Positions 7,227-24,703 are shown, counted from the first letter of the stretch. The stretch is 64,000 nt of DNA from an uncultured Clostridia bacterium (GCA_934487205.1 CAKSRS010000002.1:29116-93115); one strand, 5' to 3'. The notes: generated by a model from the sequence alone, not told the origin. A program made the numbers and translations.

Positions 7227-7232
7227 TACAAT

Positions 7233-7520: not shown

Positions 7521-7526
7521 AATCCT

Positions 7527-9544: not shown

Positions 9545-9573
9545 TTGACAAAACTATGAAACGGGCGTATAAT
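9545..9573 (+). promoter_or_regulatory. P2 (copy B)
   Basis: TTGACA (9545-9550), 17 nt, TATAAT (9568-9573). Confidence 0.6.
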
Positions 9574-9579
9574 TATAAT

Positions 9580-9724: not shown

Positions 9725-9868
9725 GCCATAAGTACAATGCTTACTTTTCATAAGCATACCCCCTTTCATAGACTCGGCATTTCTGCCTGTGAATATAAAA
9801 GTGTGGGCATAACCGCCGGTGTGAACACCGTTAAGAAATCTCGCCTTTAACATCGGATTGCTCCGACA
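9698..9868 (-). ncRNA. Candidate P3 RNA (copy B)
   Basis: Same structure as copy A. The first tetraloop is GCAA instead of GUAA, so both are GNRA. Confidence 0.4.
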
Positions 9869-9874
9869 AATCCT

Positions 9875-9903
9875 ATTATACACCATTATACAATGTTTTT
9901 CAA
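9875..9903 (-). promoter_or_regulatory. P3 (copy B)
   Basis: TTGAAA (9903-9898), 17 nt, TATAAT (9880-9875) on the minus strand. Confidence 0.55.
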
Positions 9904-9992
9904 GAGATTTTGCAGCGATCAATCAAATTTGTCGATAATGACTTATGCCCGCGGCGGACATTTTGACAGGATAGCATAATTGCACCCGTTTT

Positions 9993-10304
9993 TTATAATA
10001 GCCATTTATAGTCTTGTCTGCAATCCACAACATAATCGACATAAACTGTGTTATCTTTAATTTGATAAATTAACAAATACCTTTTTGCCGCAAGTTTTTT
10101 TCTATATTTATTTGCAGGAATCTCATCACAGTTAAGCCACGGATAACTTTCAGGCATAAACTCCAAAGCTCTTATTTCGGTAATAATATCCTTATGCAGC
10201 TTTTTAGCAGTTTCAGGTGAAACATTCGCCAAAAATCTGACATGATTTACAAGCATTGATACAGCCTTGTCAGAAACTATAACATTATACTTCTTATCCG
10301 ACAT
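9993..10304 (-). CDS. Type II toxin, RelE/ParE superfamily
   Basis: 103 aa. It overlaps the upstream antitoxin by 11 nt. KYRKKLAAKRYLLIYQIKDNTVYVDYVVDCRQDY is typical of the ParE/RelE fold. Confidence 0.8.
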   Translation of the reverse strand: MSDKKYNVIVSDKAVSMLVNHVRFLANVSPETAKKLHKDIITEIRALEFMPESYPWLNCDEIPANKYRKKLAAKRYLLIYQIKDNTVYVDYVVDCRQDYKWLL

Positions 10305-10572
10305 GACTCACCCCGGACGCTGCATCGCCAAGCATTTTGTCAAGTTCATCAACCGAATACCCTTTTTTGCCCATGAACCTTTCTTCCTCTGCGGCAATAA
10401 GTTCTTCTCTTAATTTAAGCATCTTTTCCCGTCTTGAAAAGCTTTCAATATCCATAACTACCAAATCGCCCTCGCCGTTTTTCGTAAGATACACGGGTTC
10501 CCCTGTTTCTTTGCAGTAGTTGGAAATGTCATTATAATTGTTTCTGATTGCTGCCGACGGTCTGATATTCAT
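10294..10572 (-). CDS. Type II antitoxin, Phd/YefM family
   Basis: The start is taken at ATG 10572 (GAGGAG RBS). MNIRPSAAIRNNYNDISNYCKETGEPVYLTKNGEGDLVVMDIESF is the Phd/YefM N-domain. Confidence 0.8.
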   Translation of the reverse strand: MNIRPSAAIRNNYNDISNYCKETGEPVYLTKNGEGDLVVMDIESFSRREKMLKLREELIAAEEERFMGKKGYSVDELDKMLGDAASGVSHVG

Positions 10573-10627
10573 AAAATCAACTCCTCGCATAAATATTATA
10601 TATTTATTATACATTTTTGTTACTATA

Positions 10628-10656
10628 ATTATACCATTCATATCCGTATATGTCAA
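10628..10656 (-). promoter_or_regulatory. Outward-facing R1 promoter driving phd-relE (copy C)
   Basis: Minus strand TTGACA (10656-10651), 17-nt spacer ending in TGG, TATAAT (10633-10628). Confidence 0.55.
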
Positions 10657-10902
10657 TAATATAGTTGATTTTCGTTACAAGCGTCTATAATACCTTGCGG
10701 CAATTTAAAATGTTTCATCTTCTATAATATGCCGCAAGCTTAAAAAATCAATTTATGATTTTACACCTTTGTCCCCCGTAAGGAAACGGTAGGTAGGGCA
10801 CAATTTTTCTTATACAAACCAAACAGGCTGCCCGAATACGAGCAGCCTGTTTAGTCCACAAAAATTCCCATAGGTCTTTTTGAGATAATCAACAACATTT
10901 TT

Positions 10903-10931
10903 ATTATACTACTATATGTTGTATTTGTCAA
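10903..10931 (-). promoter_or_regulatory. P1 (copy C)
   Basis: TTGACA (10931-10926), 17 nt, TATAAT (10908-10903). The downstream small-RNA sequence and the terminator hairpin at 10821-10852 are intact. Confidence 0.6.
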
Positions 10932-11020
10932 TGGTTTTTTACAAATATATTTCATTATTTTCATTTTTGTTGCAATATAATTACCACGTGTTTGCATTTG
11001 TGCAGTTTGTGGCTTTTGTC

Positions 11021-11181
11021 ATCAGCTCTGGACATCAAGGGGTGCGGACATATTCTTGGACAGTTTATACTGATAATCCAAGACTATGTCTGTACTCAAC
11101 CGGACTCATATATCCGAGGGACTGTTTTATTCGTTCTACATTATACCAATCAATGTATGTATTGATTTCTTTGTGTATTGC
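11021..11181 (-). mobile_element. IS3-family remnant: terminal repeat plus the last about 38 codons of the transposase
   Basis: The reverse strand reads ..AIHKEINTYIDWYNVERIKQSLGYMSPVEYRHSLGLSV*, the conserved IS3 integrase C-terminus. The end sequence is GATGTCCAGAGCTGAT. Confidence 0.65.
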
Positions 11182-11185
11182 TAAC

Positions 11186-11443
11186 CTATTTACCGTCTCT
11201 TTCAAGTCGTACTTCTTTCACCAAAACCACAACATCATCAATGGTATTTAGTCCCAGCCTGTCTGCCTCGCCCGTAAAATCTTTTTGTATTTTTTCAAAA
11301 GCATACACCGCTGCGTTTTCAATACGTACCCGACCGTCCTGCTCAATAAAGCAAATCTTATCCCCTGTTTTTAGATTCAGCCGTTTTCTTATCGCAGTAA
11401 GTATCGTTACTCGTCCGCCCGGCATTACACATACCGTTTCCAT
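11186..11443 (-). CDS. AbrB/MazE/SpoVT-family DNA-binding protein (antitoxin-like)
   Basis: 85 aa. GGRVTILTAIRKRLNLKTGDKICFIEQDGRVRIE is a swapped-hairpin (looped-hinge helix) motif. Confidence 0.7.
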   Translation of the reverse strand: METVCVMPGGRVTILTAIRKRLNLKTGDKICFIEQDGRVRIENAAVYAFEKIQKDFTGEADRLGLNTIDDVVVLVKEVRLERDGK

Positions 11444-11512
11444 AATTGAACCACCTCACGCAAATTTTTTGGTAAAATATATTTCCACCGGGTGGAACTA
11501 CCACAAATATAT

Positions 11513-12916
11513 TTACTGCATAACCTGCCAATAGCCCTTCTTATCCGAGCCTATACGGCAGATAATATTCTTCCTTTTGAGAGATTTTATCAATTCACCG
11601 ACGGTTTTTCGGCTTACATCTAATTTTCCGGATAAATCATCATATGTGTAAGCCGGATCTTCCAATAAGAGTGCAATGAGCCGATTTTCAGTTTCAGTCA
11701 CCTTTTCAGTCACCCTACCAGTCACCTTTTCAGTCACCCTACCAGTCACCTTTTCAGTCACCCTACCAGTCACCTTTTCAGTCACCCTATCGGCTGATGT
11801 ACGCACAATTCTATCCTCGGGTGCCGAAAACTTTATCATTATATCCTGCGGGTGAACCGTAAATTCCGGTTGAAAAACGCCATCATTTTTGCATACAGTA
11901 CAGATTTTTTCTATTCCGCGTCCCCAGCTTTCAATAAAGCCAGCAAGATAAAATACGTAAGCTATGTTGGGGTTGAACGGCTGTGATGCATGTTTCTCAA
12001 AAAGATTTTCAACTGTCCAGTTTTCCGGCAAATGACCACAATTTGCAATATACAGTTTATCATTGTAAACGCTTATTTGAATTGGAATCCCCCTTGAATA
12101 ATCCTTATGACAAAGAGCATTCAAAAGTGCTTCACGCAAAGCTTCTTCCGGAACAAAATACCGTTCAATGCGTTGCATACCGACATAGTATATCTTCGCT
12201 TTCATATATTTTAAATAAATAAGCTCAACTATTTTATCAATTTGATCCAATATAGAGCCGTGAATTTCATCTTGATATACAAGGTCTGCATCGGTTTCAA
12301 AAAAACCTATTTTTACATAAGCGCCCAACTGCCATTTTTCCGGATCATTACTGAAAAGCAGCATAGCCGCATTTGTTAAATACCCGTCCTTTACCAAGTG
12401 AAGTTTCTCAAGCATAACAAATTTATCTTCCGATAAAACCGATTTGTTTATTCGTCCTTTGTTAACTGCCCATTGCTTAAATCGCTTAACGACCCCATCG
12501 TCGACATCGTCTGCTGTAAACGTAGGCAATGGCATACTGTCCCAGGTGACTCCCCGCCGTCTCATAATAAAGGTTTCCAGTTCAGGACCGGATAGCTTTT
12601 GATTTGTGCTACCGCTTCTGTAATAGTATGAGCCTTTGCAGGAGATAGCAATAGGGTAAGGTGGCACGTCTATTTCAACGTACTCACAATTGCCGTCGGT
12701 AAGAGAATTTATGTTAACAATAATCCCCATTGCATCACGAATTTTGTTCGGAAGATCTTCAAGCAGTTTTTTCGCATTTTTCACCCCTACAACTTCGCCG
12801 GAATCATTCATACCAATATACAGTTTTCCCCCCTGTGCATTTGCAAATCCACATATCCATGCAAGATAATCGTCTTTCCAGACTTCTTTCCACTCAACAT
12901 TTTGTTTTTCACGCAT
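11513..12916 (-). CDS. AlbA_2 (Schlafen-like divergent AAA) plus HATPase_c_4-type putative transcriptional regulator with a C-terminal wHTH
   Basis: 467 aa. NVEWKEVWKDDYLAWICGFANAQGGKLYIG is an AlbA_2 N-domain. ALREALLNALCHKDYS is the ATPase-like domain. It contains the in-frame repeat (RVTEKVTG)x4. Confidence 0.7.
   Translation of the reverse strand: MREKQNVEWKEVWKDDYLAWICGFANAQGGKLYIGMNDSGEVVGVKNAKKLLEDLPNKIRDAMGIIVNINSLTDGNCEYVEIDVPPYPIAISCKGSYYYRSGSTNQKLSGPELETFIMRRRGVTWDSMPLPTFTADDVDDGVVKRFKQWAVNKGRINKSVLSEDKFVMLEKLHLVKDGYLTNAAMLLFSNDPEKWQLGAYVKIGFFETDADLVYQDEIHGSILDQIDKIVELIYLKYMKAKIYYVGMQRIERYFVPEEALREALLNALCHKDYSRGIPIQISVYNDKLYIANCGHLPENWTVENLFEKHASQPFNPNIAYVFYLAGFIESWGRGIEKICTVCKNDGVFQPEFTVHPQDIMIKFSAPEDRIVRTSADRVTEKVTGRVTEKVTGRVTEKVTGRVTEKVTETENRLIALLLEDPAYTYDDLSGKLDVSRKTVGELIKSLKRKNIICRIGSDKKGYWQVMQ
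11695..11790. repeat. Perfect 24-bp tandem repeat x4 inside the AlbA_2-type gene
   Basis: CAGTCACCTTTTCAGTCACCCTAC at 11695, 11719, 11743 and 11767 (the last unit ends in T). It encodes RVTEKVTG units. Confidence 0.9.
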
Positions 12917-13318
12917 TTTATCATCTCCGGCTCATTTTTCTATAGTATACCACAAACTGTTAAAAAAATCAATTCGTGATATTTGTATGTTGAATATTTG
13001 ATTTCCCAATCCTGAAGATTCTCATTATGAGTTCCTCGAAATAGGATATCTCAGTTTTGTAATATCTCTTATGCGTGATGCATCTCAAATTTCAAACTGT
13101 CCTCATATTCCTCCAACTCCCCCTATCACAGAACGTCCCCTAACCTTATCTCCTCTTTATCTTGGTTTCCCCCCGTTCCTGCCCGCGGTCCGTGCATGAT
13201 AAGACCGCGGGCGGTTCCTGTGCTTACAAAGTACGGTCAAATTCGGCTTTTGCATTTGCCGTCCCCCGTAAGCACATTAGTGCGACAAATTTGCAAATCG
13301 CCCGATTTTGCAAACCCC

Positions 13319-13345
13319 GCAAGCCGCATTACTGCTTGCTTTTTT
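13319..13345 (+). terminator. Intrinsic terminator-like hairpin in a non-coding tract
   Basis: GCAAGC-cgcattact-GCTTGC followed by TTTTTT. Confidence 0.45.
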
Positions 13346-13349
13346 GGGT

Positions 13350-13430
13350 GTTCCTTACGGGGGAAAGTGCGTGAATTTTTCACCCCTGTAGCCAACATTC
13401 ATTTTACACCTTTGTCACCCGTAAGGAAAC
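13350..13430. repeat. Imperfect about 80-bp palindrome made from two inverted copies of the R1-end motif
   Basis: GTTCCTTACGGGGGAAAGTGCGTGAA (13350-13375) against the reverse complement of TTTTACACCTTTGTCACCCGTAAGGAAAC (13402-13430). Confidence 0.6.
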
Positions 13431-13452
13431 GGTAGTATGACACAATTTTTTT
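13401..13452. repeat. Fourth, partial copy of the R1/R2 junction sequence
   Basis: ATTTTACACCTTTGTCACCCGTAAGGAAACGGTAG..GACACAATTTTT matches 9265-9315 and 10758-10810, then diverges. Confidence 0.75.
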
Positions 13453-13466
13453 GCGTATTTTTGTCA

Positions 13467-13489
13467 GCTCTGGACATGATGTCCAGAGC
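13467..13489. repeat. Abutted IS3-type terminal repeats (perfect 11-bp palindrome arms)
   Basis: GCTCTGGACAT-G-ATGTCCAGAGC. It is the same end sequence as the IS3 remnant at 11021-11040. Confidence 0.6.
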
Positions 13490-13496
13490 CCGCCAT

Positions 13497-13916
13497 TTAA
13501 GGTTTTAGCCTTTGCCGCATTAACTCAATCGCCATATGGTGATAGCAGTAATAGTTTGCGTAACTTGTAATTTTTACCTTTTCCCTCGTCTTTTCATAAC
13601 GCTCATTTGCCTTGTAAACTTTATCACAAAAATATGTATAATACAGAACCCAATAATATATCTCACCCGCTTCCTCATTTTCGCGTATATCTCGTACCGC
13701 TTTGTTTATCAGCTTTACCACTTTTATCGTGAGCTTACGTTCATTGCCGGTATAATTGATGTCATTGATGCCGGTTTCTTCTGCAAATTCTTCCGGTGAG
13801 CACAATATTTCCGGCTCATATCCAACCTCTTTTTCTACTTTTTGCAATTCTCTTGCAAGCTTCATATCGCGGTAGTTGTTTAGCAACAATACTACCCGTT
13901 TTTGTTCTTCTGTCAA
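13497..13916 (-). CDS. ArpU/sigma-70 region-4-like small transcriptional regulator (paralog 2)
   Basis: The start is taken at TTG 13916 (GGAGGAGG RBS, 7-nt spacing), directly after the upstream stop. The YYWVLYYTYF motif is shared with the neighbouring gene. Confidence 0.55.
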   Translation of the reverse strand: MTEEQKRVVLLLNNYRDMKLARELQKVEKEVGYEPEILCSPEEFAEETGINDINYTGNERKLTIKVVKLINKAVRDIRENEEAGEIYYWVLYYTYFCDKVYKANERYEKTREKVKITSYANYYCYHHMAIELMRQRLKP

Positions 13917-13918
13917 TT

Positions 13919-14449
13919 TTATACCTCCTCCGGCTTTACAAGCGTTTTCGTTATTTCCATACACTCTTTTGAGGTGTATCCCCACAGCATTGTGCTTAAT
14001 AGATTTATTGCCTGTCTGCGGTAGTTAAAGTACGTCTGCCACGATACATAGTACTGTTTTTGCGCAATCTTGTCCACAATCTGGTCGACGCTTTCTAAAG
14101 GCTTTTCGCACAGGTATGTATAATACAAAACCCAGTACATCATCTCGCCTTTTTGATGTTTTCTGCGGATAATTTCGACCGCACGGTCAATAAGCTGCAG
14201 CATCTTACGGTTACGTTCCATTGTTCGAACCTGTTCCTCAATTTTTGTATTCATCAAATCCGCTCCGGCAGCGTATGACATATCCAAAAATTCTGTCATT
14301 TTACAGCCCGTTTCAAATTCAAAATTGACCTCCGCCTGCATCGCCGATACCTCAATGCTCCACACGACATCGCGGTATTTTTTGAGCAGCAGCTCCGTGT
14401 TGTGATACAAAAATTCGTTGTTTTTCTCGATTGTGCTTTTCTTTTCCAT
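13919..14449 (-). CDS. ArpU/sigma-70 region-4-like small transcriptional regulator (paralog 1)
   Basis: 176 aa. It carries the MYWVLYYTYL motif. Its start overlaps the RepA_N stop by 1 nt. Confidence 0.55.
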   Translation of the reverse strand: MEKKSTIEKNNEFLYHNTELLLKKYRDVVWSIEVSAMQAEVNFEFETGCKMTEFLDMSYAAGADLMNTKIEEQVRTMERNRKMLQLIDRAVEIIRRKHQKGEMMYWVLYYTYLCEKPLESVDQIVDKIAQKQYYVSWQTYFNYRRQAINLLSTMLWGYTSKECMEITKTLVKPEEV

Positions 14450-15387
14450 TAGTTATCGTCCTTTCTGAAATAATTCTTGTTAAATTTTGATTGATAATAG
14501 TGATTCATTGTGTCCGGGGCGTTATACAGCATCGTCAAAATATAGCTTTTGTAATTGCGAATTTTTGTGCTGTTCTCGTCCAGACAGTCGATTACATACA
14601 CGATGTGCATATAATCGAGTTTTAAGAGCTTTCTTTTTACCACCTCCTTTGGCACTTGCATACTGTTGACATTGATTTTATCGTCAAAGCTGCATATTGC
14701 GTCGACTATGATATTTACAAAGCCGTCGATTTTCTCGGCAGCGTATTGCTGAATTAAGATGTCATACTCGATATTGGTTCTGATTACGTCCCTGTATTCC
14801 TCTCTTTCCCTCTCTAAGGCGGCAAATGAAATGCGTGAGGAAGAAGATATATCAGTTTTATTCAAATCTGTATTATTAATATCAGTATTATTAGAGTCGG
14901 ATATGCCGAAGTCAAGAGTTCGGTTTTTCAGAAGTGCAGACTTCGGTTTTTCAGAAGTCAAGACTTCGGCATTTTCGCCTGACTTCGGTTTTTCAGAAGT
15001 CTGGACTTCGGCTGAGTTATCAACACTTTGGATTGAATTTTGATTGTCCGTAAAATTTAAAACATAAATAATAACCGGCTTACCTAAGCCCTGCTTTTTG
15101 CGTTCTATCAAAATCCCGTCCAATTCTTTTAATAACTTCACACCTTTGTCCTTGCCGATTGATAAATAATCCGTGATTTCCTCAAGTGTGAAATATATGT
15201 AAACTCGGTTATCATCATCGACCCAGTTATTGCGAACCGACAAACTCATTCTGTCGAGCATTAAACCGTACAAAACTTTTGCCTCCACTGAAATTCCGGC
15301 ATACCGGCTGTCGGTAAACAATAATTTCGGTATTCGATAAAATGCGAACTGTTCCGATTCACTTTTGTAAAAAAAATTATTTTTCAT
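14449..15387 (-). CDS. RepA_N-family plasmid replication initiator
   Basis: The start is taken at ATG 15387 (GAGGAGG RBS). FYRIPKLLFTDSRYAGISVEAKVLYGLMLDRMSLS..YIYFTLEEI is the RepA_N N-terminal domain. The central linker is repetitive. Confidence 0.8.
   Translation of the reverse strand: MKNNFFYKSESEQFAFYRIPKLLFTDSRYAGISVEAKVLYGLMLDRMSLSVRNNWVDDDNRVYIYFTLEEITDYLSIGKDKGVKLLKELDGILIERKKQGLGKPVIIYVLNFTDNQNSIQSVDNSAEVQTSEKPKSGENAEVLTSEKPKSALLKNRTLDFGISDSNNTDINNTDLNKTDISSSSRISFAALEREREEYRDVIRTNIEYDILIQQYAAEKIDGFVNIIVDAICSFDDKINVNSMQVPKEVVKRKLLKLDYMHIVYVIDCLDENSTKIRNYKSYILTMLYNAPDTMNHYYQSKFNKNYFRKDDN
14908..15016. repeat. Five about 23-bp direct repeats inside repA (candidate iterons / internal origin)
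   Basis: The (A/T/G)GACTTCGG cores recur at 14916, 14939, 14962, 14981 and 15004, with GTTTTTCAGAAGT following three of them. Confidence 0.6.
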
Positions 15388-15413
15388 TGCCCATTCCTCC
15401 TCATTTTTGCACG

Positions 15414-15445
15414 AAAAAAGCAGACACACTTAATTGCATGTCTGC
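15414..15445 (-). terminator. Intrinsic terminator downstream of the cotJC 3' segment
   Basis: Minus strand GCAGACA-ugcaauuaagug-UGUCUGC followed by UUUUUU. Confidence 0.6.
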
Positions 15446-15483
15446 ATAACCAGAATTTGAAAACAGCCCGTTCCCGCCAAATG

Positions 15484-15731
15484 TTATTTATACAAATATG
15501 CAGCATCTGCTGCCAAATCCTCAAACAAATTAGTTATCGGGTCGCCCGTCGACGCAATAGATGCCGACGTGAACGGCGCGCCCTGTGCGCTCTGCGGGAA
15601 AACGCCGTTTCCGTTATCGGCATAATATTCGGGTGAGTGTCCGTTAAGCCAATCCTTTCCGGACGCTCCGTCCGACAGCTGATACACAAGCGTGCCCACC
15701 ATTTCCAGATGCCCCAACTCCTCAGTACCTA
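15484..15731 (-). pseudogene. cotJC: cotJC 3' segment (manganese-catalase-family spore coat protein, split gene)
   Basis: It reads (G)TEELGHLEMVGTLVYQL..GDPITNLFEDLAAD.., which continues the 5' segment at 24101-24285 in frame. Confidence 0.8.
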
Positions 15732-16021
15732 CCTGTTATCCAAAATTGGTATTCTGTCTTAAATGCCCTAAATACTGCACGAATGGGACAATCTGACAAG
15801 GCTATGTATAGTAATGTAAAGGTTACTGTTTTTCTTCCGGTATGATGAATTTAATATTACCTTTTAACAAAAGGTATCATTCCCAAAACTCCCACAAACC
15901 TAACTCTCGTAATGGTTTCAGGATTTTTGAGATTAAAAACTTAATAAAAACACAATTTGAATATTACCTTATGTTCAATAACTGAATGAAAGGTAATATT
16001 TTTCTTTTTGCAAAAAAACGG

Positions 16022-16050
16022 TGTACATTTCATCACAAGCGATATATAAT
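16022..16050 (+). promoter_or_regulatory. Promoter of the tyrosine recombinase gene
   Basis: TGTACA, 17 nt, TATAAT, preceded by AAAACGG. A 9-bp inverted repeat TAATTGTAA/TTACAATTA lies just downstream. Confidence 0.45.
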
Positions 16051-16088
16051 TGTAAAAAATAAAGTTACAATTAAAGGAGCATAAGCAT

Positions 16089-16664
16089 ATGGCTTTACAA
16101 AAAGAGGTTGAACCCATTAAGAACACAAGAGATATTAACAAAATCAAGCAGTATTTATACGGAAAAGAAAACAAGAGGGATTACTGTATATTTGTAGTCG
16201 GTATCAATGTCGGATTAAGGGCAGGGGACCTATTATCACTCAAAATAAAGGACATTACAGACGGAAACATAATATTTGATACTGTAACCATTAAAGAACA
16301 GAAAACGGGCAAAACAAGGAATTTTGCATTAAATAAAAACGCTAAGGAGTCAATAAAAATATATCTTAACTCTTTAACGGATTATGACTTTGAAGATTAT
16401 CTTTTTAAAAGCAGAAAAGGCGGTCATTTAGGGGTAAGACCGTTACATCATATAATTAAGACACTTACAAAGGATTTAGGGATTAAGGGTAATTTCGGGA
16501 CACATACATTAAGAAAAACTATGGCTTATCACAGATACATAAATAATGTGCCGTTAGAAACACTCCAAAAGCTCCTCAATCACTCGTCAAGTGCAATTAC
16601 ATTAAGATATATAGGCATTACTCAAAAAGTGATTATAGACTGCTATAATGCAGTAAATTTATGA
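16089..16664 (+). CDS. Small tyrosine site-specific recombinase (phage integrase family)
   Basis: 191 aa. GLRAGDLLSLK, HTLRKTMAYH and LNHSSSAITLRYI match the R..H-x-x-R..Y catalytic boxes. Confidence 0.75.
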   Translation: MALQKEVEPIKNTRDINKIKQYLYGKENKRDYCIFVVGINVGLRAGDLLSLKIKDITDGNIIFDTVTIKEQKTGKTRNFALNKNAKESIKIYLNSLTDYDFEDYLFKSRKGGHLGVRPLHHIIKTLTKDLGIKGNFGTHTLRKTMAYHRYINNVPLETLQKLLNHSSSAITLRYIGITQKVIIDCYNAVNL

Positions 16665-16665
16665 A

Positions 16666-17475
16666 ATGAGGTTTGGTATTATGTTATTTACAGTCAGAAA
16701 TAATGCGTTCGGTGAAAGTTTACCGAAGAACATAAAAATAGTTAAAAATAAAAAATACGGAATTATGAATGAATTAAACGGCATATATATTTTGCCCGAA
16801 GAATATGACAATATTTTTCTTTACGGTATCAATGTATTTGCCTTGCATAAAAACGGAAAAATCGGATTGTGCAGAATTGAAGATGAAAAGCTTGTTATCC
16901 TTTGTGAGTGTAAATATGATGTGATAGACAATTACAATCATGATTTATTTTTAAGCAATGATGGTGAAACTCTATATTTTAACTCAAATACAAAAGAAGT
17001 CAGAATATTTAAAGAAATTGTAACCGATATGATGTATTTATACGGATATGACAAAAATTATCAATATATCATTCATCAGGAGTCGGGAAAGGTTATCTAT
17101 AAGAAAGAGTTAAACAAATACAATAAATCCTATTATGTTTATTGCGGAGAAAGTGAAAAAGGTGCGGTATTTTACGATACATCATTCAGTACACTTATCT
17201 ATCCGACAGACAAGGGTTATATGCCGTATGAATATCCCTTAAATCACCCTGTAATCGTCAATAAGCATAACGTAATGAATATAATTGACGGCGAAAACGG
17301 TATTGGTATAATTGATTCCGAGGGCAACAGTATTATAGAAAATAATTATGATGAAATTACTGTCGAGCTAAAAATTACGGCGAAAAATAAAAATGAACGT
17401 GTAGAAAAAATAATAAAAATCCCCAATAACACCTTTACAAAAGATAAAGTATCGGATATCGGGGATTGGATTTAA
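16666..17475 (+). CDS. WG-repeat (KWG) containing protein
   Basis: 269 aa. The start is 2 nt after the integrase stop. Repeated KYGI.N..G..I.P.EYD units. Confidence 0.55.
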   Translation: MRFGIMLFTVRNNAFGESLPKNIKIVKNKKYGIMNELNGIYILPEEYDNIFLYGINVFALHKNGKIGLCRIEDEKLVILCECKYDVIDNYNHDLFLSNDGETLYFNSNTKEVRIFKEIVTDMMYLYGYDKNYQYIIHQESGKVIYKKELNKYNKSYYVYCGESEKGAVFYDTSFSTLIYPTDKGYMPYEYPLNHPVIVNKHNVMNIIDGENGIGIIDSEGNSIIENNYDEITVELKITAKNKNERVEKIIKIPNNTFTKDKVSDIGDWI

Positions 17476-17518
17476 TACACATAGAAGAAGCCGGTTATAT
17501 CGAAAAAAGAAACAGACT

Positions 17519-17704
17519 TTATTTATCTGTTTCCTTATTATTTGATTGTTCAAAATTTTCCATAGCATATTCACAGCATTGGATAACAAAGCTGTTTAAG
17601 GAAACCTTTTCGTTTTGTGCCACAACAGACATTTTATCAAGTAAGGATTTGGGAAATCTGAATGTTCTGTTAGCTGTTTCTTCTGTATGACGCACTTTAA
17701 ACAT
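17519..17704 (-). CDS. Ribbon-helix-helix (Arc/CopG-like) small DNA-binding protein
   Basis: 61 aa. AGAGGTGA RBS. RTFRFPKSLLDKMSVVAQNEKVSLNSFVIQCCEYAM fits an RHH fold. Confidence 0.55.
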   Translation of the reverse strand: MFKVRHTEETANRTFRFPKSLLDKMSVVAQNEKVSLNSFVIQCCEYAMENFEQSNNKETDK

Positions 17705-17793
17705 AGTATCACCTCTTACTAAATATTATAAATGCAGATAGTAATTTTATAAACACTATATTTATGCAATTTTATATTGTGTGCAATATGCAC

Positions 17794-17822
17794 TTGACTG
17801 TTTTGAGAAATTGTGATATAAT
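17794..17822 (+). promoter_or_regulatory. Strong promoter upstream of the LRR surface protein gene
   Basis: TTGACT, 17-nt spacer ending in TGA, TATAAT. Confidence 0.55.
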
Positions 17823-17871
17823 CATGACAGATTGGTAATTTCAAAATTTACTATACAAAGGAGTTTTCAAA

Positions 17872-19878
17872 ATGAAAAAAGTATTATCAACAATTATAGT
17901 GATTGTATTATTATTTCAATCACTATCGGCATATGCAGATATTATTGGAGTTGGATATGACATTGTTACAGGGAAAATAGAAAACGGATCAGAAGTATTG
18001 TATCCTACAGGAGACAGGTATTATGAGCCTGTTTGCCTTAAATATGGATATACCGACAAATTCAGTCTTGCTGCCGAAGATACAATGGCAAATAAAATTA
18101 TATGGGGTGTTGGAGATGAAAATATAATAGAAATTACCGAAACCAGCCCGCCCCAAAGTATAATAATTAAAGCTGTAGGCGTAGGTCATACCTCTTTGTA
18201 TGCCTATAAAATGTCTTATGCAGTAGCAACAGGGGAATATTCTTTAATAGGAATGTGTTCAATTCCCATAGACGTTATAGATTCAGGTACATGGGATATT
18301 GTAATACAACCTACTGAAACTGAAAAAGGAATAGCTGTTAAAACACTGGATTCGGGAAAACAAATTTTAGAGGAAATATCTCCGCTTTCAGATACGTCGG
18401 TTTGGACAAACGTTCAAACTGTAAAATCCACATGTACTGAATCTGGTTATGCTATATATTCGTCAAAATATGGTGAAGTAAAAGAAATTATACCCAATAC
18501 GGGTCATCAATGGAAAAAGATTTCCGAAACAGAATTATCGAACGGTGAAATTGATTTATGTTATAAATGCTCATTATGTCGGCTTACAAAAAATGAGAAA
18601 AAGTATAATTATTTGTATTATCTGCGGTCAGATTCAACTATAGGCATATATGGCTTTAATAATGGAAGTAATTTGAGTGGAGAAATTACATTTCCTGCGA
18701 CAATTGACGGCTATGAAGTAAAAGAAGTATCACTTGATTCATCGCGGACAGAATATGATTTAAGTAATGTTACAGGAATTGTCTTTGAAAATGGTATAGA
18801 AAAAATAAATACACCCTTTGCTGAACTGGGAAATTTAGAGTATGTTTTATTGCCCGACACGTTAAAATGTATAGATAGTTATACTTTTAAAAATTGTACT
18901 AAATTGCAGAATGTAGAAATCCCCCACAATGTAACTTCAATCGGAGAACAGGCTTTTGCAGGCTGTAATCATCTTAATTCTGTTATTATAAGTGAAGGAG
19001 TAGAAAAAATTGACAGTTATGCATTTTCTGAATGTCCTATAACAAGGCTTTCGTTGCCAAACTCAATTAAAAATTTAGCTAATGGTTCTTTTAAAGGGAG
19101 TAAAATAACAGAAATATTACTCCCTGAGGGATTAAAAACGTTTAGCATGGGAGCATTTTCAAACGTAGAATATTATTATATTCCTTCAAGTGTTACAAAG
19201 TTAAATGATTTATATGCTCTTAATTCATCGTGTAAGGGTATATATGTTTCAAATAATAATTCTACCTATTCGAGTGATGAATACGGAGTTTTATATAATA
19301 AAAATCAAACCGAATTATTAGTTTATCCTACCGAATTGGACAAGGCAATTTATAATGTTCCCAATGGGGTTGAAACAATAAGCTCAGTAGCATTTGGAAA
19401 CACTGAACAAAAATATTTGAAAACTATTTGTTTCCCTGAAACACTCATAAAAATTTCAAATTCTGCATTCTTTAATTGTCAGAATTTACACAGAGTAGTT
19501 TATGACGGAAGCAAGCAGAATTATTTAAAGATTAATATTGAACTTGGCAATGATGTTTTAAGTGGAGTCGAGGTGGTTTGTAAAAAAACGGGATCAAACA
19601 CATATGAGTCCCTTTCTGATTTAAACGTTGAATTTTCTAAAACTTCATCACGCTGGCACTTTGATATTTCTGATGATACCTATGAAGAAAATGCAATCAT
19701 ATATGTCGGAATATATGATGAAAATAACATATTATTAACAGCGAAATCAGAGAGTATGGTCAGGAATGATATTACCAGTATCTCTATTACAAAGATTAAT
19801 AATTCCAAATTTGCAAAGGTTTACGAATGGGTGAATATGAAACCTGTTGCAAATGTGAAAACCATTGATTTAAATTAA
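17872..19878 (+). CDS. Secreted leucine-rich-repeat (BspA-like) surface protein
   Basis: 668 aa. Signal peptide MKKVLSTIIVIVLLFQSLSAYA. Repeated ..I.IP..VTSIG..AF..C..L..V.. units. Confidence 0.75.
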   Translation: MKKVLSTIIVIVLLFQSLSAYADIIGVGYDIVTGKIENGSEVLYPTGDRYYEPVCLKYGYTDKFSLAAEDTMANKIIWGVGDENIIEITETSPPQSIIIKAVGVGHTSLYAYKMSYAVATGEYSLIGMCSIPIDVIDSGTWDIVIQPTETEKGIAVKTLDSGKQILEEISPLSDTSVWTNVQTVKSTCTESGYAIYSSKYGEVKEIIPNTGHQWKKISETELSNGEIDLCYKCSLCRLTKNEKKYNYLYYLRSDSTIGIYGFNNGSNLSGEITFPATIDGYEVKEVSLDSSRTEYDLSNVTGIVFENGIEKINTPFAELGNLEYVLLPDTLKCIDSYTFKNCTKLQNVEIPHNVTSIGEQAFAGCNHLNSVIISEGVEKIDSYAFSECPITRLSLPNSIKNLANGSFKGSKITEILLPEGLKTFSMGAFSNVEYYYIPSSVTKLNDLYALNSSCKGIYVSNNNSTYSSDEYGVLYNKNQTELLVYPTELDKAIYNVPNGVETISSVAFGNTEQKYLKTICFPETLIKISNSAFFNCQNLHRVVYDGSKQNYLKINIELGNDVLSGVEVVCKKTGSNTYESLSDLNVEFSKTSSRWHFDISDDTYEENAIIYVGIYDENNILLTAKSESMVRNDITSISITKINNSKFAKVYEWVNMKPVANVKTIDLN

Positions 19879-19950
19879 TAATAATTCTTATTTAATTATT
19901 ATGGACACAATTAACACATTACATAAATATTAGAATTAAATCTAATCACT

Positions 19951-20032
19951 CAAAACCACCTTAGAATGAACACGATAGTATAATAATGATTTATATACAA
20001 TATCGTGCAAAATCAATTCTAAGGTGGTTTTG
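19951..20032. terminator. Long hairpin between convergent genes (17-bp perfect stem)
   Basis: CAAAACCACCTTAGAAT (19951-19967) pairs with ATTCTAAGGTGGTTTTG (20016-20032), with an inner CACGATA/TATCGTG stem. Confidence 0.55.
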
Positions 20033-20035
20033 TGT

Positions 20036-20224
20036 TTAGTTATGTTTATTCAGTCTGTACAGAGTCAAGGCAATACTATCATATGCTTTATGAAGTAAAG
20101 GAAGTACATCATAATATTTTTTCGGATAGTACATATAAATGGAGTCCTCCAGGTCTTTAATTGAATTTTTTGTAAAAATAATATCTTGTATAAACTGATT
20201 GTTTGATTTATCCGAATAATCCAT
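20036..20224 (-). CDS. Small hypothetical protein (62 aa)
   Basis: The start is taken at ATG 20224 (AAGGAG RBS). It is the second gene of a two-gene operon. Confidence 0.4.
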   Translation of the reverse strand: MDYSDKSNNQFIQDIIFTKNSIKDLEDSIYMYYPKKYYDVLPLLHKAYDSIALTLYRLNKHN

Positions 20225-20240
20225 ACTGCAACAACTCCTT

Positions 20241-20447
20241 TTAATCATTTTCTGCCACAATGCAGAACTCACCGAAATCATCATACAGTTGAGATAAAAT
20301 ATCTACTAAGGTATCTAAGTCGTATTTGTCGGGGTTAAACTGTAAATCTTCTTTAACAGTCTTTAATCTGTTGATAACAGTTCCGATACTTTTGTCAATA
20401 CTTTTAATTCTGTCAGCCTGTAAATTGTCTTTAAGAATTTTTATCAT
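20241..20447 (-). CDS. Small hypothetical acidic helical protein (68 aa)
   Basis: Clean ORF lying upstream of the 62-aa ORF. Confidence 0.4.
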   Translation of the reverse strand: MIKILKDNLQADRIKSIDKSIGTVINRLKTVKEDLQFNPDKYDLDTLVDILSQLYDDFGEFCIVAEND

Positions 20448-20709
20448 AATATCATCTCCAAAATTGATTTTTATAATTTTATTTTAAAAAATATTCAACA
20501 AATTTTTTCTTGATATTATTCGTTTTGTTGTAGAAAATCAACAACACATTTTTTAATTCTTAAAAATAAATCTACAATCATACGTATTTTGTTTTTAATT
20601 AAAGGAAGTTGTCTTAATACTTTAAAAAAAAGATTTTTTAAAAGTATTAAAGTATAAGTATAAAGCAATATTTATTGTTGCTAAAAATTTATGAAAGGAG
20701 GAATTTGTT

Positions 20710-21240
20710 ATGAATACAAATTCCAATAAAATTTTATTTAAAAAGGTAATTACAAATAAGGTGGTGCTTGATTATCCACGGTTAATCAAGCCCAAGTCTA
20801 ACAAGAATTTTCCCGATTCCGAACCGAAGTATGGTACGACTATCATTATCCCCAAAGATGATGTTAAAACCATCGAAAAAATTAAACAGGCTATTAAAGC
20901 TGTGATTGATAGCGGGTGTTTTACAGATGTCAATGACATAAAATTGCCTTTAAAAGACGGAGATGAGATACATCCTGGGGAAACATTATATAAAAACAGT
21001 ATGTATTTATATGCTTCAAGTTCATTTAAACCTTATTTGGTAGACAGTAAGGTGCAAGAAATCAAATTCCGTATGAATGAGTTCCAAGGCGGCACATATG
21101 CCAAAGTTTGTATGCAGTTTGAACATTATAATTATAATGGTATAAAGGGCATTAAAGCAGAATTAATTAGTGTACAAATTTTAAGTGGCAATAAGCTATT
21201 GGAATCAAGGTCAAAACCCGAAGATGATTTTGAAGTATAG
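20710..21240 (+). CDS. DUF2815-family phage-type single-stranded-DNA-binding protein
   Basis: 176 aa. PKYGTTIIIPKDD..LPLKDGDE..YLYASSSFKP..GGTYAKV..YNYNGIKGIKAEL follows the DUF2815 pattern. AGGAGG RBS. Confidence 0.65.
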   Translation: MNTNSNKILFKKVITNKVVLDYPRLIKPKSNKNFPDSEPKYGTTIIIPKDDVKTIEKIKQAIKAVIDSGCFTDVNDIKLPLKDGDEIHPGETLYKNSMYLYASSSFKPYLVDSKVQEIKFRMNEFQGGTYAKVCMQFEHYNYNGIKGIKAELISVQILSGNKLLESRSKPEDDFEV

Positions 21241-21264
21241 GAAGACGAAGAAGATTAAGAATTT

Positions 21265-21299
21265 TTGTCTGCCGATATAAAAATTATATCGGCAGACAA
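21265..21299. other. 15-bp perfect hairpin immediately upstream of rep (terminator or candidate double-strand origin)
   Basis: TTGTCTGCCGATATA-aaaat-TATATCGGCAGACAA. Confidence 0.5.
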
Positions 21300-21355
21300 C
21301 CCCTTACTTCCATATTTAATTATTATTGATACTTTAGGTACACTTTGGGTGATAA

Positions 21356-22150
21356 GTGATGAAACAGGAAAACAGTAAATCAATCAATGAACACGATTAC
21401 GTTACCTTGTATAAATGCGGTAACTATAAAGAAATTGTATGTTGCAGACAAGATACAATACCGATTCAAATAACAAAACTTACTAAAAATCAATATATAG
21501 ACAATAATACTGGAGAAATTAAAGAATATCACTATACAGGAAATAAAACTCTTAACAATATAAGAAAACAATTTAAAAATATACCAAGACTTATAAAAGG
21601 ATATTTTGACGGAAATAACACAGAACGTTTTATTACTTTAACTTATTCATATATAATGAGTAATCCCTATTGTCTGTCATACGATTTTAAAAAATTTATA
21701 AGAAAGATAAACAGAAGATACGGAAAATGCAGATATATTTACATTAAAGAGCCTAACAGAAAAGGCTCGTGGCATATACACAGTCTTATAAAAAGATTAG
21801 ACGGAAAGCCCTTTACTATTACAGATGAAGTATTACGCAAATTATGGGGAAACGGTTATGCTGTATCGAATGAAATTCTATACAATATTTATACTTTACC
21901 GCAATACTTTGACGTTACAAGATATGATGATAAAAAATCAAGACTTATTTATTATCCGTCTTATTTAAACATTTATGGTTGCTCGGAAGATATGAAGATT
22001 GAAAAGATAAACGGAACATACAAAGACTTAAAACCCTCTGAAATGACAAAAATATATGATTCCGAAAATCAATATATTACGGTCAATAAAGAGGACGGAG
22101 AAATAACAGGACAATGGAAAACTGCATATGAGCAGTATAAGACACAATAA
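21356..22150 (+). CDS. Putative HUH-type rolling-circle replication initiator
   Basis: 264 aa. RFITLTY.., GSWHIHSLIK (an H-hydrophobic-H motif) and downstream Tyr-rich segments. It is adjacent to the SSB gene. Confidence 0.5.
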   Translation: MMKQENSKSINEHDYVTLYKCGNYKEIVCCRQDTIPIQITKLTKNQYIDNNTGEIKEYHYTGNKTLNNIRKQFKNIPRLIKGYFDGNNTERFITLTYSYIMSNPYCLSYDFKKFIRKINRRYGKCRYIYIKEPNRKGSWHIHSLIKRLDGKPFTITDEVLRKLWGNGYAVSNEILYNIYTLPQYFDVTRYDDKKSRLIYYPSYLNIYGCSEDMKIEKINGTYKDLKPSEMTKIYDSENQYITVNKEDGEITGQWKTAYEQYKTQ

Positions 22151-22333
22151 TTTTTTGATTGGGCAGTTAAAACCGACCGCCCGATAAATCCCTAAATCAC
22201 TTAACAAACAACTAATCATACAGATTTAGAGAAACAAAACGGTTTAATATCTTATGTTTGGAGTTGTTTGTTTTGTTTGAAATTTATGTAATAGGTCAAG
22301 CTCTCAATTTCATAAACATTTATATAAAAACGG

Positions 22334-22362
22334 TGTACTTTGTGTGTGAAATGGTATATAAT
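22334..22362 (+). promoter_or_regulatory. Promoter of the serine recombinase operon
   Basis: TGTACT, 17 nt, TATAAT, preceded by AAAACGG. The architecture and 12-mer match the tyrosine recombinase promoter. Confidence 0.45.
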
Positions 22363-22402
22363 TTAAAAGTTTATATCCACACATATTATTTGGTGATGTG
22401 CT

Positions 22403-22567
22403 ATGGAAAATGAGAAAAGTTTTGACACATTACTAATGACAGGTATTTTAAAGGCACTAAAAGAACGGGAATTATTGACCGAAGAAGAATTAAACGAATG
22501 TATCAGAAAAATAGAGAGTGATGAAGAAAATGTTAAAAGTTGCGGCATATTGCAGAGTATCGACTGA
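22403..22567 (+). CDS. Small helical protein (54 aa) overlapping the recombinase start
   Basis: MENEKSFDTLLMTGILKALKERELLTEEELNECIRKIES... It is below the ORF-track length cutoff. Small ORFs of this type often precede clostridial serine recombinase genes. Confidence 0.35.
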   Translation: MENEKSFDTLLMTGILKALKERELLTEEELNECIRKIESDEENVKSCGILQSID

Positions 22568-24128
22568 CAAGGACGACCAAAAAAATTCCCTTGAAAGCCA
22601 GAAATCATATTTTGAAGAATATATCAATAAAAATTCCGATTGGGAATTTGTTAAAATATATCCCGATGAGGGTATCAGCGGTACAAGCACAAAAAAACGC
22701 AAAGAGTTTAACTGTATGATTAAAGATGCCAAATGCGGAAAAATAGACCTTATTATAACAAAAGAGGTTTCGAGATTTGCAAGAAATACAGTTGATACAC
22801 TCCAATATACACGTGAATTAAAATCATTGGGAATCGGTGTATTATTCATAAATGACAATATAAACACATTAGACAGCGACGGAGAACTGCGTTTGACTAT
22901 AATGGCGAGTATCGCCCAGGAAGAAAGCCGAAAAACTTCCGAACGTGTTAAATGGGGACAAAAAAGACAAATGGAAAAGGGTGTTGTATTCGGTCGTAAT
23001 ATTTTAGGTTATAATTTAAAAAACGGAGTCTTAACAGTAAATGAAGATGAGGCTAAACTTGTACGGCATATATTCAGTAAATACTCAGAAGGCAAAGGAC
23101 TTCATATCATAGCAAAAGAATTAAGAGAAGAAGGTCATAAAACAAAAAACGGTAACAGCGAATGGACAAATAAGTCCATTCGTACCATTTTACAGAATGA
23201 AAAATATGCAGGCGATTTATTGCAGAAAAAAACAATTACACCCGATTATTTAACCCACGAAAAGAAATATAACAGGGGCGAGGAAGAAATGGTTTATATA
23301 AAAGACCACCACGAGCCTATTATAGACAGAGAAACATTTGATTTTGTTCAGGCAGAATTTAAAAGAAAATCGGTAGCATATAAAACCGATAATACCAAAC
23401 ATTCCAACAGATATGCCTTTTCGGGAAAAATCATATGCGGTCATTGCGGCAGAAGATACTCGGCTACATTCAGAAAACGCAAGGACGGAAGTAAACGAAA
23501 GGTATGGAATTGCTATAATAAATTTAAAAACGGTGCCTTGCACGAGGTCAACGGAGAAATTATAGGCTGTGATAATACGGCTGTCGGAAATGATATTTTA
23601 GAATGTGCGGTTTTGCAGGCACTAAATGATATATCAATCAACAAATCTGCAATTACAGATAAAATCACAAAAACAATAAATGAGGTTTTAAGGAATAAGG
23701 AAAAAGAAGAATATAACTTTGAAAAGGCAGAAAAAGCGATTGAGCGATTGGATTCAAAAAAATTAAAGGTCATAGACTCTTATTATGACAACGAAATAAG
23801 CAAGGACGAATTTATTAAGCTGAAAGAACAGTATCAAACCGAGATAGACGAATTAAAGAATAAAATCAAGACTGAACGTGAAAAATCTGTTTCCATTGAA
23901 AATAAAGACGGCTTTATAAATGAAATATGTAAAACCGTAAAACAACTCGTTTCGTTTGAAACCTTTAATGATTCTATTACAAAAGAGATTTTGGATAAGA
24001 TTATAATACACAGCAAATCCGATATAGATGTATATTTGAAAGGCTTTTCGGGGGAACATATTTTTTTTGCGGACGGAAGTAAAATTTTGGATAGTAATTT
24101 CCTATATCAGTTAAAAGGCCCTTACTGA
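22518..24128 (+). CDS. Large serine recombinase (resolvase domain, recombinase domain, zinc ribbon, coiled coil)
   Basis: AAYCRVSTDKDDQ..SLESQ (catalytic Ser), ITKEVSRFARN, and CGHCGRRY..WNCY zinc-ribbon cysteines. The last 8 codons and the stop lie beyond the CCTA junction. Confidence 0.9.
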   Translation: MMKKMLKVAAYCRVSTDKDDQKNSLESQKSYFEEYINKNSDWEFVKIYPDEGISGTSTKKRKEFNCMIKDAKCGKIDLIITKEVSRFARNTVDTLQYTRELKSLGIGVLFINDNINTLDSDGELRLTIMASIAQEESRKTSERVKWGQKRQMEKGVVFGRNILGYNLKNGVLTVNEDEAKLVRHIFSKYSEGKGLHIIAKELREEGHKTKNGNSEWTNKSIRTILQNEKYAGDLLQKKTITPDYLTHEKKYNRGEEEMVYIKDHHEPIIDRETFDFVQAEFKRKSVAYKTDNTKHSNRYAFSGKIICGHCGRRYSATFRKRKDGSKRKVWNCYNKFKNGALHEVNGEIIGCDNTAVGNDILECAVLQALNDISINKSAITDKITKTINEVLRNKEKEEYNFEKAEKAIERLDSKKLKVIDSYYDNEISKDEFIKLKEQYQTEIDELKNKIKTEREKSVSIENKDGFINEICKTVKQLVSFETFNDSITKEILDKIIIHSKSDIDVYLKGFSGEHIFFADGSKILDSNFLYQLKGPY

Positions 24129-24285
24129 TATCATCGGGCATAATGTACCGCTGCGACAGATACCTAAGCGACGCACCCAGTTCACCGTTCGGCCCGCCGT
24201 ACTGCGTCGCAATAATCGTTGCAAGCTGCGGATTTTTATTTTTCAGTTTTATCGGATATTGCAAAAACTTTTTATATGAAAACAT
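24101..24285 (-). pseudogene. cotJC: cotJC 5' segment (split gene)
   Basis: MFSYKKFLQYPIKLKNKNPQLATIIATQYGGPNGELGASLRYLSQRYIMPDDISKGLLTDIG matches the CotJC N-terminus. It then runs into element DNA. Confidence 0.8.
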
Positions 24286-24533
24286 TACGCATTACCTCCC
24301 TTTTCCCACGGCCACGGACTGTTAAGCCACATATCGCTCTCATCGCACGCCGACGCCGCGGCGTCAAGCGGACCGTATTTACTTTCAAATTCGTCCATCA
24401 GCTTTTCCGCAGTTTCGGTAAGCGTCCGGAAAATTGCAAATGCACGCGTATCACCCGGGTGGGTGTCCAAATATAACCGCATATCGTACGCGGCAAACGC
24501 ATACCGCTGAATTTCAAGCCTTAATTCATTCAT
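24285..24533 (-). CDS. cotJB: Spore coat protein CotJB
   Basis: 82 aa. YAFAAYDMRLYLDTHP..A...F and WPWE motifs. The ATGA overlap with cotJA and the 1-nt overlap with cotJC match cotJ operon architecture. Confidence 0.85.
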   Translation of the reverse strand: MNELRLEIQRYAFAAYDMRLYLDTHPGDTRAFAIFRTLTETAEKLMDEFESKYGPLDAAASACDESDMWLNSPWPWEKGGNA

Positions 24534-24703
24534 ACACTTTTCCCCTCACTTTTACAAACTTTTCCGTACTGTTCAATCGTCAGCACAAGTTCCGGGAACA
24601 GTGACCCGGCGGCAAGCGCCTCTTTTGCATTATATACAGTATTAAGCTGCTGAATCGGCACATATCCGTACCCGACACAGCCGCAGCTGTTCTGCATTTC
24701 CAT
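24530..24703 (-). CDS. cotJA: Spore coat-associated protein CotJA
   Basis: 57-aa ORF, below the track cutoff. It reads MEMQNSCGCVGYGYVPIQQLNTVYNAKEALAAGSLFPELVL.. with a GGAG RBS. Confidence 0.7.
   Translation of the reverse strand: MEMQNSCGCVGYGYVPIQQLNTVYNAKEALAAGSLFPELVLTIEQYGKVCKSEGKSV

Follow-up and report, generated by a model that had tools for sequence, protein, structure and literature searches.

A plasmid-like serine-recombinase element in the sporulation gene cotJC of an uncultured Clostridia bacterium, and the recombinase clade that shares its insertion site

Here we describe the cotJ locus in a stretch of 64,000 nucleotides (nt) from an uncultured Clostridia bacterium (GCA_934487205.1 CAKSRS010000002.1:29116-93115), in which the sporulation gene cotJC is interrupted by an element of about 8.4 kb that carries a large serine recombinase (LSR). 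The whole stretch that was analyzed is called the window; it was read as one strand, and all coordinates are window positions. The genes of the cotJ operon are encoded on the minus strand and were assigned by Pfam: cotJA at 24530..24703 (CotJA, E 1.2e-9), cotJB at 24285..24533 (CotJB, E 1.4e-24) and then cotJC, which is present in two separated pieces. The 5′ segment of cotJC (24103..24285, minus strand) holds codons 1-62 and ends ..GLLTDIG, and the middle segment (15506..15729, minus strand) holds codons 63-137, TEELGHLEM...EDLAA. Both pieces were placed by tblastn with Bacillus subtilis CotJC as query; residues 1-62 were located at 24285..24097 and residues 60-135 at 15732..15505. The Pfam family Mn_catalase was found on the joined open reading frame (ORF), and the middle segment was also aligned with full-length homologues. 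A preliminary description of this DNA had proposed that cotJC is split in frame by an LSR element within a cotJA-cotJB-cotJC operon of a clostridial-type genome, and the Pfam assignments, the tblastn placement and the join of the two pieces bear this out.

Promoters in the window were recorded as consensus matches, and the sigmaE-type pattern was taken from C. difficile (PMC3789822). A sigmaK-type match, AC-N16-CATATTAT, stands at 24781-24806 on the minus strand, ~75 nt upstream of the cotJA start, and it comes after the terminator of the upstream rotamase (PrsA-like) gene. Dependence on sigmaK is known for the cotJB2-cotD genes of C. difficile (PMC3789822). The split gene is a coding sequence in an operon preceded by a sigmaK-type match, as is expected of the target of an intervening element.

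The element occupies 15730-24102 (8,373 bp) between cotJC codons 62 and 63, the insertion point being between the Gly62 and Thr63 codons in the first ExxH metal-ligand motif of CotJC. The tetranucleotide CCTA is found at both break points (15728-15731 and 24101-24104) and forms a 4-bp shared core with no further target duplication; joining through it gives ...GLLTDIG / TEELGHLEM... with the frame kept. The junction on the recombinase side (24070..24135, attR of the preliminary description) has its CCTA at 24101-24104 and the predicted crossover dinucleotide CC at 24101-24102, and the far-end junction (15700..15760, the attL) has CCTA at 15728-15731 and CC at 15728-15729. The 11-bp terminal inverted repeats that had been reported before were found again, TATCCAAAATT on the left (15737..15747) and AATTTTGGATA on the right (24083..24093); TATCCAAAATT has just two copies in the 64-kb window, which are this one inverted pair, and shuffled sequences average 0.16 matches. 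Both repeats stand exactly 7 bp from CC, and CC (GG on the gene strand) is therefore the probable crossover dinucleotide. The right repeat is kept as TATCCA(A/T)(A/T)AT in two related loci, L024 and L025. The circular attP1 is predicted to read ...GGATAGTAATTTCC / TACCTGTTATCC..., and a short core, inverted-repeat arms in attP and the lack of a long target duplication are the features of serine-integrase att sites. The GC fraction is ~0.30 in the element against ~0.49 in the host DNA to the right.

Conspecific loci were retrieved from human-gut metagenomes by an exact look-up of the CotJB sequence, the identical protein being present on 22 conspecific contigs, and ten loci were compared. Eight have the element and two (L003 and L009) do not. 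In these two, in which CotJB is identical, the gene reads ...CTGATATAGG / TACTGAGGAG..., which is exactly the attB that had been predicted from the window and which is in this way found in nature. Because these empty-site alleles match the predicted attB, the element is a real site-specific insertion. Between the split cotJC and the two empty-site strains there are 2 synonymous and 0 non-synonymous differences, a count too small for selection on cotJC to be read from it.

The LSR gene is located at one end of the element (22518..24128, plus strand) and encodes 536 amino acids (aa), or 532 aa with the start used by gene callers. It has the Pfam domains Resolvase, Recombinase and Zn_ribbon_recom (PF00239, PF07508, PF13408), matches the integrase family PHROG 95, and has the catalytic-serine context AAYCRVSTD in its translation. 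The ORF overruns the crossover by 24 nt (24101-24128 region), so that its last 8 codons are antisense cotJC, and in the excised circle it would continue into left-end sequence of the element and have a longer and different tail. As the alignments of the recombinase family end near residue 507, this C-terminal tail is probably not functional.

Relatives of the recombinase were searched in GTDB with a single genome for each species, which gave 275 of them (the best with 74% and 70% identity, the bulk with 50-53%), and the locus layout was read for the best 80 of the 275. A cotJC fragment adjoins the 3′ end of the recombinase gene in 75 of these 80 loci. The layout of the window, with the cotJC 5′ fragment on the opposite strand and cotJB beyond it, was seen in 68 loci and in L024 and L025; four of the best 80 have the cotJC 3′ fragment on the strand of the recombinase, and in L079 the 3′ fragment lies at the far end of the element. 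Two of the remaining loci stop at a contig edge and three are without a cotJC fragment. The host labels are Oscillospiraceae, Lachnospiraceae, Ruminococcaceae, Acutalibacteraceae, Yeguia hominis, Roseburia, Dorea and others. The host-side junction is always ...ACNGATATNGG(TA), as seen in 67 related loci and in the window, and the element-side arms vary by subfamily and form inverted repeats, which are ~22 bp long in other subfamilies. The recombinase of the window belongs to a large gut-Clostridia clade of which nearly all members are at the same cotJC position, and both the integration at this site and the existence of the family are claims in which we have high confidence.

Where both cotJC pieces are visible, the elements of this clade range from ~3.8 kb to ~10 kb, and the smallest have, besides the recombinase and a small ORF, one to three further genes, which is the pattern expected of retained recombination units. 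Opposite orientations within cotJC were seen for L073 versus L048 and for L027 versus L049, in which the matching arms mark the same element type at codon 62; the occurrence of both orientations fits a palindromic TA crossover within GGTAC. In the subfamily of the window the crossover appears to be at GG. The loci L146-L149 and L150 also have opposite orientations of one recombinase subfamily, as judged from gene order alone. In L028, L038, L046 and many other loci of the main family, the element end beside the cotJC 5′ piece is GAAGCCTCTGAAATGTTCCTTTCAGAGGCT followed by a run of T, a hairpin terminator in the cotJ sense direction which would keep cotJ transcripts out of the element. Polymorphism for presence or absence in cotJC was seen as well in L143-L150, which come from a different species with a CotJB in the same 90% cluster: some contigs have an intact 193-aa cotJC and others have it split by a ~6.5-kb element with a serine recombinase of 477-479 aa, an upstream ORF of 52-53 aa and a cargo gene of 1511 aa.

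Domain calls for the larger ORFs of the element were made by Pfam and PHROG scans. A rolling-circle-type Rep of 264 aa (21356..22150, plus strand; Pfam REP_ORF2-G2P; PHROG 3419) is 28-37% identical to the Rep proteins of Firmicutes plasmids that have a size of 1.5-2.5 kb, and it is preceded by an Enc34/Gp2.5-like single-stranded-DNA-binding protein (SSB) of 176 aa (20710..21240, plus strand; PF10991, E 3.5e-36; PHROG 112). The element is a small plasmid-like integrative mobile element of a non-phage kind. That it might be what is left of a defective prophage, as skin is, with a temperate phage once integrated in cotJC and since decayed to one end, is very improbable. The match of the recombinase to PHROG integrase family 95, its relatives with 47-54% identity at the ends of IMG/VR proviruses with tail and endolysin genes (L119, L121) and the phage type of the SSB (Gp2.5/Enc34) would suit such an origin; however, no capsid, tail, terminase, packaging, lysis or repressor-module genes were found among the larger ORFs of the 8.4 kb, no phage or plasmid record in the collections searched by megablast matches the element, the Rep is plasmid-like, and the contigs of L119 and L121 end at the recombinase, so that an insertion in cotJC is not visible there.

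A 54-aa ORF (22403..22567, plus strand; motif ILxxLxxRxLLTxxExxxC) overlaps the start of the recombinase gene and is a candidate recombination directionality factor (RDF) or accessory protein. In a survey of 99 related loci, an ORF of 53-70 aa was found upstream of the recombinase in 65, at a distance of 140-310 bp and mostly of ~155-200 bp, with the consensus (M)KxREFVYVGxPxPxLxEQEHAAF...SILxSLEKRxLLTxSQRERC...; the ORF of the window matches the C-terminal two-thirds of this family (hhalign probability 91.5%, E 8.5e-7). Precedents for such a factor are Skr, which overlaps the start of spoIVCA in skin (PMC6957869), and CD1234 of C. difficile, which has 72 aa and is controlled by sigmaE/SpoIIID while its partner recombinase is constitutive (PMC5025042). 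On sequence grounds the small ORF is the best candidate for the directionality factor of these elements.

The promoters before the small ORF were surveyed in 57 distinct upstream regions of the main family, in which conservation is strong, and 44 of them have a sigmaE-type motif, ATA-N16-18-(C/A)ATA(C/T)A, at a fixed position (shuffles, 0.56); as the upstream sequences are related by descent, 44/57 measures conservation and not independent occurrence. This motif is followed at sensible distances by a ribosome-binding site and a TTG, CTG or ATG start of the small ORF. The sigmaE pattern of C. difficile has ATA at -35 and CATATAAT or CATATTAT at -10 (PMC3789822). Before the small ORF of the window there is a sigmaA-like consensus match, TGTACT-N17-TATAAT (22334..22362, plus strand).

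The cotJC gene of the window has also a second junction, at codon 137 (15506..15513, minus strand), with the core GCAGCAGA (codons A-A-E/D), which is palindromic around GA (GCAGCA-GA-TGCTGC). The attB2 predicted here is ...GATTTGGCAGCAGA / ACAAAAGG..., and L019 and L049 have an intact attB2, TTG GCAGCAGA ACAAAAAGC, to which sequences in L021, L048 and L143 come close. The visible part of the second insert (1..15505) has a lower GC content and its far end was not found; all conspecific loci long enough to cover this site have the insertion, including the two with an empty first site, L003 and L009. The preliminary description had held that joining the two pieces restores the CotJC sequence in frame, and had overlooked this second break; the frame is restored but not the whole gene, as the rejoined ORF has 142 aa and ends ...EDLAAD / AAYLYK before its stop codon, against 193-197 aa in intact homologues, which go on ...EDLAAEQKARA(V/T)YDNIL...FLRQREI(V/T)HFQRFGEAL. 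The missing last ~60 codons include the helices with the C-terminal Glu and ExxH ligands, which are alignable with solved Mn catalases. With a second element at codon 137, excision of the 8.4-kb element alone cannot yield a functional CotJC.

The 3′ piece of cotJC was not found by tblastn in the window, nor in the conspecific contigs that extend ~46 kb leftwards from the second junction, which were covered in four 10-kb steps; several assemblies stop near the end of this stretch. The second element is either very large or a remnant of which the cotJC end was lost or moved. The gene content to the left of this junction was judged from precomputed Pfam labels; the ~46 kb stretch has glycan-utilisation genes and a two-component system, and no recombinase, relaxase or type IV secretion/conjugation genes were found in it by these labels. 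An integrative conjugative or mobilisable element was considered for the second insert and is not supported within this ~46 kb, as only a RepA_N/DUF6017 gene (14449-15429, minus strand), which opens the insert, and accessory genes were seen. A JGI metagenome scan for the 3′ piece with an ABC permease gave distant relatives only, and the closest 3′ fragments, P0121, P0122 and P0125, were not taken as the missing piece, as they come from other samples and no link to the species of the window could be made. In the relatives with an intact cotJC (P0008, P0023 and P0258) the neighbourhood is not conserved and gives no hint of the ancestral downstream gene.

The site at codon 137 is recurrent, since many CotJC homologues of 140-147 aa (71-95% identity) from many species stop exactly there, and many proteins of 60-108 aa are cotJC 3′ fragments starting ...(I)AAEQKAR. 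Such a 3′ fragment comes after a 517-aa serine recombinase in L017 and L141 and after a RepA_N gene in L018. A third LSR site was found near codon ~30; it is filled in L053, L066, L080 and L100, in each together with the codon-62 site, and in L053 (11584-15272) the codon-30 element has ~3.5 kb, carries a different serine recombinase of 502 aa and stands in tandem with the codon-62 element. At least three positions in cotJC, codons ~30, ~62 and ~137, serve as LSR landing sites, and two of them can be filled in one gene. For cotJC of gut Clostridia as such a multi-site landing pad, it could further be supposed that CotJC would be made in the mother cell only after two coordinated excisions, for each of which a separate recombinase and its small factor would act under sigmaE control, and this we hold to be unlikely. 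A parallel would be given by Anabaena, where multiple excisions rebuild the nif and hup genes in heterocysts.

Our preferred explanation, which we consider reasonably probable, is that the 8.4-kb element is a mobile element that seeks cotJC, integrated by its LSR in a gene already interrupted and possibly dead, and perhaps excised in sporulation. The LSR would insert the element by recombination of attP with attB, with the crossover at GG (CC on the plus strand), and together with a directionality factor, for which the small ORF is put forward, it would excise the element and restore the frame between the two cotJC pieces. Replication of the excised 8.4-kb circle may be driven by its own Rep. 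By analogy with skin, SPbeta, gin and yin, the excision may take place in the sporulating mother cell, and a mother-cell timing of excision is what we would propose for the whole family. For the element of the window itself developmental excision is a possibility to which we give somewhat less than even weight, and that cotJC can be reconstituted at all in this species appears more doubtful still.

A number of observations weigh against developmental excision in the window. The presence of the element varies among strains of one species, and it carries a Rep and an SSB, which is a sign of recent mobility; strain variation and a plasmid-type Rep together give it the look of an active mobile element and not of a fixed developmental switch. 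In the subfamily of the window (the window, L024 and L025) a sigmaA-like promoter, TTTAC(A/T)-N17-TATAAT, is conserved before the small ORF and recombinase, and the CATATTAT box just before the small ORF of the window is not kept in L024 or L025. A pattern scan for mother-cell promoters inside the element gave counts at chance level. The small ORF has no significant match in Pfam or PHROG, and none to a known RDF family. The cotJC gene is truncated at 142 aa even in the empty-site strains, and as no 3′ piece was found within ~46 kb there is possibly no selection for precise excision in the species of the window. The proposal of developmentally programmed excision in the preliminary description finds no sporulation-specific control in the sequence of this subfamily, the promoter being sigmaA-like; its comparison to skin-like intervening elements is supported by the recombinase family dedicated to the cotJC site, and the still truncated gene and the mobile-element traits do not agree with it.

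Many of the same observations, that is the strain variation, the Rep related to those of small plasmids with the SSB beside it, the sigmaA-like promoter, the mother-cell promoter signal not above chance, the truncated cotJC and the missing 3′ piece, also speak for a plain mobile insertion with no developmental role. Such an insertion would be an integrative plasmid-like element which uses cotJC as a conserved, non-essential safe site and excises only for its own transfer or replication, the gene being inactivated in carriers and already dead here. The redundancy of cotJC-type genes in C. difficile and the mild phenotypes of the mutants (PMC11222575) agree with this too, and the Rep gene, the strain variation and the sigmaA-like promoter leave room for an excision that is constitutive or serves the element's own transfer. 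However, three separate LSR families target cotJC and many of the elements are minimal, which is typical of elements that are kept because their excision is needed; the sigmaE-like promoter before the small ORF is conserved in the main family; and in the characterised cases consulted, an LSR element located in a mother-cell sporulation gene is excised when the cells sporulate (PMC5595907, PMC4191935, PMC5025042). We regard a plain insertion as a possible explanation of rather modest probability.

The explanation preferred here, a cotJC-seeking mobile element perhaps excised in sporulation, can be set beside known systems, as intervening elements in mother-cell genes are established for skin, SPbeta, vfbin, vrin, gin and yin (PMC4191935, PMC5595907, PMC5025042, PMC10747680). 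With skin in sigK (SpoIVCA/Skr of B. subtilis; CD1231/CD1234 of C. difficile) the element of the window shares an LSR gene at one end, a split mother-cell gene, a precise in-frame join through a short core, and a small ORF at or overlapping the 5′ end of the recombinase gene, like skr (PMC6957869). The candidate factor of 53-70 aa is near in size to CD1234 with 72 aa (PMC5025042), and the main cotJC family also has a sigmaE-type motif before the small ORF. The differences from skin are that the target in the window is a coat-protein gene and not a regulator, that the element has no phage genes and has a plasmid-type Rep and the sigmaA-like promoter of its subfamily, that the gene of the window has a second interruption, and that excision in the window is a prediction.

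In kind, the element of the window is nearer to gin than to either skin or SPbeta. Like gin in gerE of B. cereus ATCC10987 (GirC/GirX; PMC5595907), it is a non-phage element with serine recombination, located in a small mother-cell gene, with a GC content below that of the host and variable cargo. However, gin is 28.6 kb long, carries three serine recombinases and has been proved to excise specifically in sporulation, whereas the element of the window has 8.4 kb, one LSR and a short tyrosine recombinase (see below), and its excision is predicted. With SPbeta in spsM, phi3T in kamA and yin in yabG (PMC4191935, PMC5499854, PMC6957869, PMC10747680) the likeness lies in a unit of LSR plus RDF that rejoins a sporulation gene, and in these systems the recombination units can be exchanged between elements whose content differs widely; these are prophages or prophage-like elements with demonstrated excision, in contrast to the plasmid-like element described here.

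The preliminary description had presented cotJC as a further target of such elements, and in this it was preceded. Kohm et al. (bioRxiv 10.1101/2021.11.22.469490) cite Abe et al. 2013 for cotJC, and Galperin et al. (bioRxiv 10.1101/2022.02.25.481979) describe a skin-like element in cotJC of Laceyella sacchari. The target gene and the idea are shared with these earlier in silico reports; the present case is in gut Clostridia and comes with evidence for a recombinase clade dedicated to codon 62 and for additional LSR sites at codons ~30 and ~137, and two sites can be filled in one gene. In the literature search no experimental work on any cotJC element was found, and no account of the breadth seen here. 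A separate study may be warranted for the wider pattern, in which a dedicated clade, three insertion sites and tandem occupancy go together with a conserved small ORF that has a sigmaE-like promoter.

If excision during sporulation is true for these elements, many uncultured spore-formers of the gut would rearrange their genes in a programmed way as a matter of routine, a process which so far has been shown only in a few Bacillus and Clostridium strains. If there is no excision, the family would be an example of mobile elements that find a safe harbour in a coat gene which is both conserved and dispensable, and this would explain many of the 'truncated' annotations of Mn-catalase/CotJC in metagenome-assembled genomes. 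The family also provides many natural serine integrases with one defined attB and differing attP arms, along with a conserved candidate directionality factor, which can be of use in integrase engineering.

The remaining genes of the 8.4-kb element are as follows from its far end. A short tyrosine-recombinase-family protein of 191 aa (16089..16664, plus strand; Pfam Phage_integrase, E 5.9e-26; PHROG 216) has the catalytic domain only, and in a conspecific variant of the element (L002:13905-15095) an extra GmrSD_N gene, a DNA-modification-dependent nuclease of the defence type, lies beside it. It is followed by a 269-aa protein without a Pfam or PHROG family match (16666..17475, plus strand) and by an Arc/HicB-like small DNA-binding protein of 61 aa (17519..17704, minus strand) with weak Pfam matches to HicB and Arc and a PHROG match to an Arc-like repressor. 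A BspA-type leucine-rich-repeat protein of 668 aa (17872..19878, plus strand; Pfam LRR_5, E 7.5e-56) is the cargo, and its hydrophobic N-terminal segment is signal-peptide-like as judged by eye from the translation. Two small overlapping ORFs of 68 and 82 aa (20036..20447, minus strand) have no family match, and both are called as genes in conspecific loci. Rfam gave no match in window 1-26000.

After its RepA_N/DUF6017 gene the second insert has, all on the minus strand, two genes of unknown function, a Schlafen/AlbA_2 gene, an AbrB-like gene, a PhD/ParE pair and a Bro-N gene, and these are followed by glycan-utilisation genes. A direct repeat of ~650 bp is present here in three copies (94-97% and 72% identity) at 6949-7594, 9295-9942 and 10789-11105, and the copies separate cassettes (Bro-N with a 185-aa gene; PhD/ParE; the AbrB-like gene) in a layout like a cassette array. 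A 12-nt tandem repeat of ~9-12 units lies at 11671-11813 inside the 467-aa gene of Schlafen/AlbA_2 type, where it encodes (R)VTEKVTG repeats, and L003 and L012, which are contigs of one other sample's assembly, end near this tandem repeat. Further to the left, at 4778-5032, an 84-aa Transposase_mut (IS256-family) fragment lies between a glycoside-hydrolase-like gene and an esterase gene, and it is a sign of past rearrangement left of cotJC.

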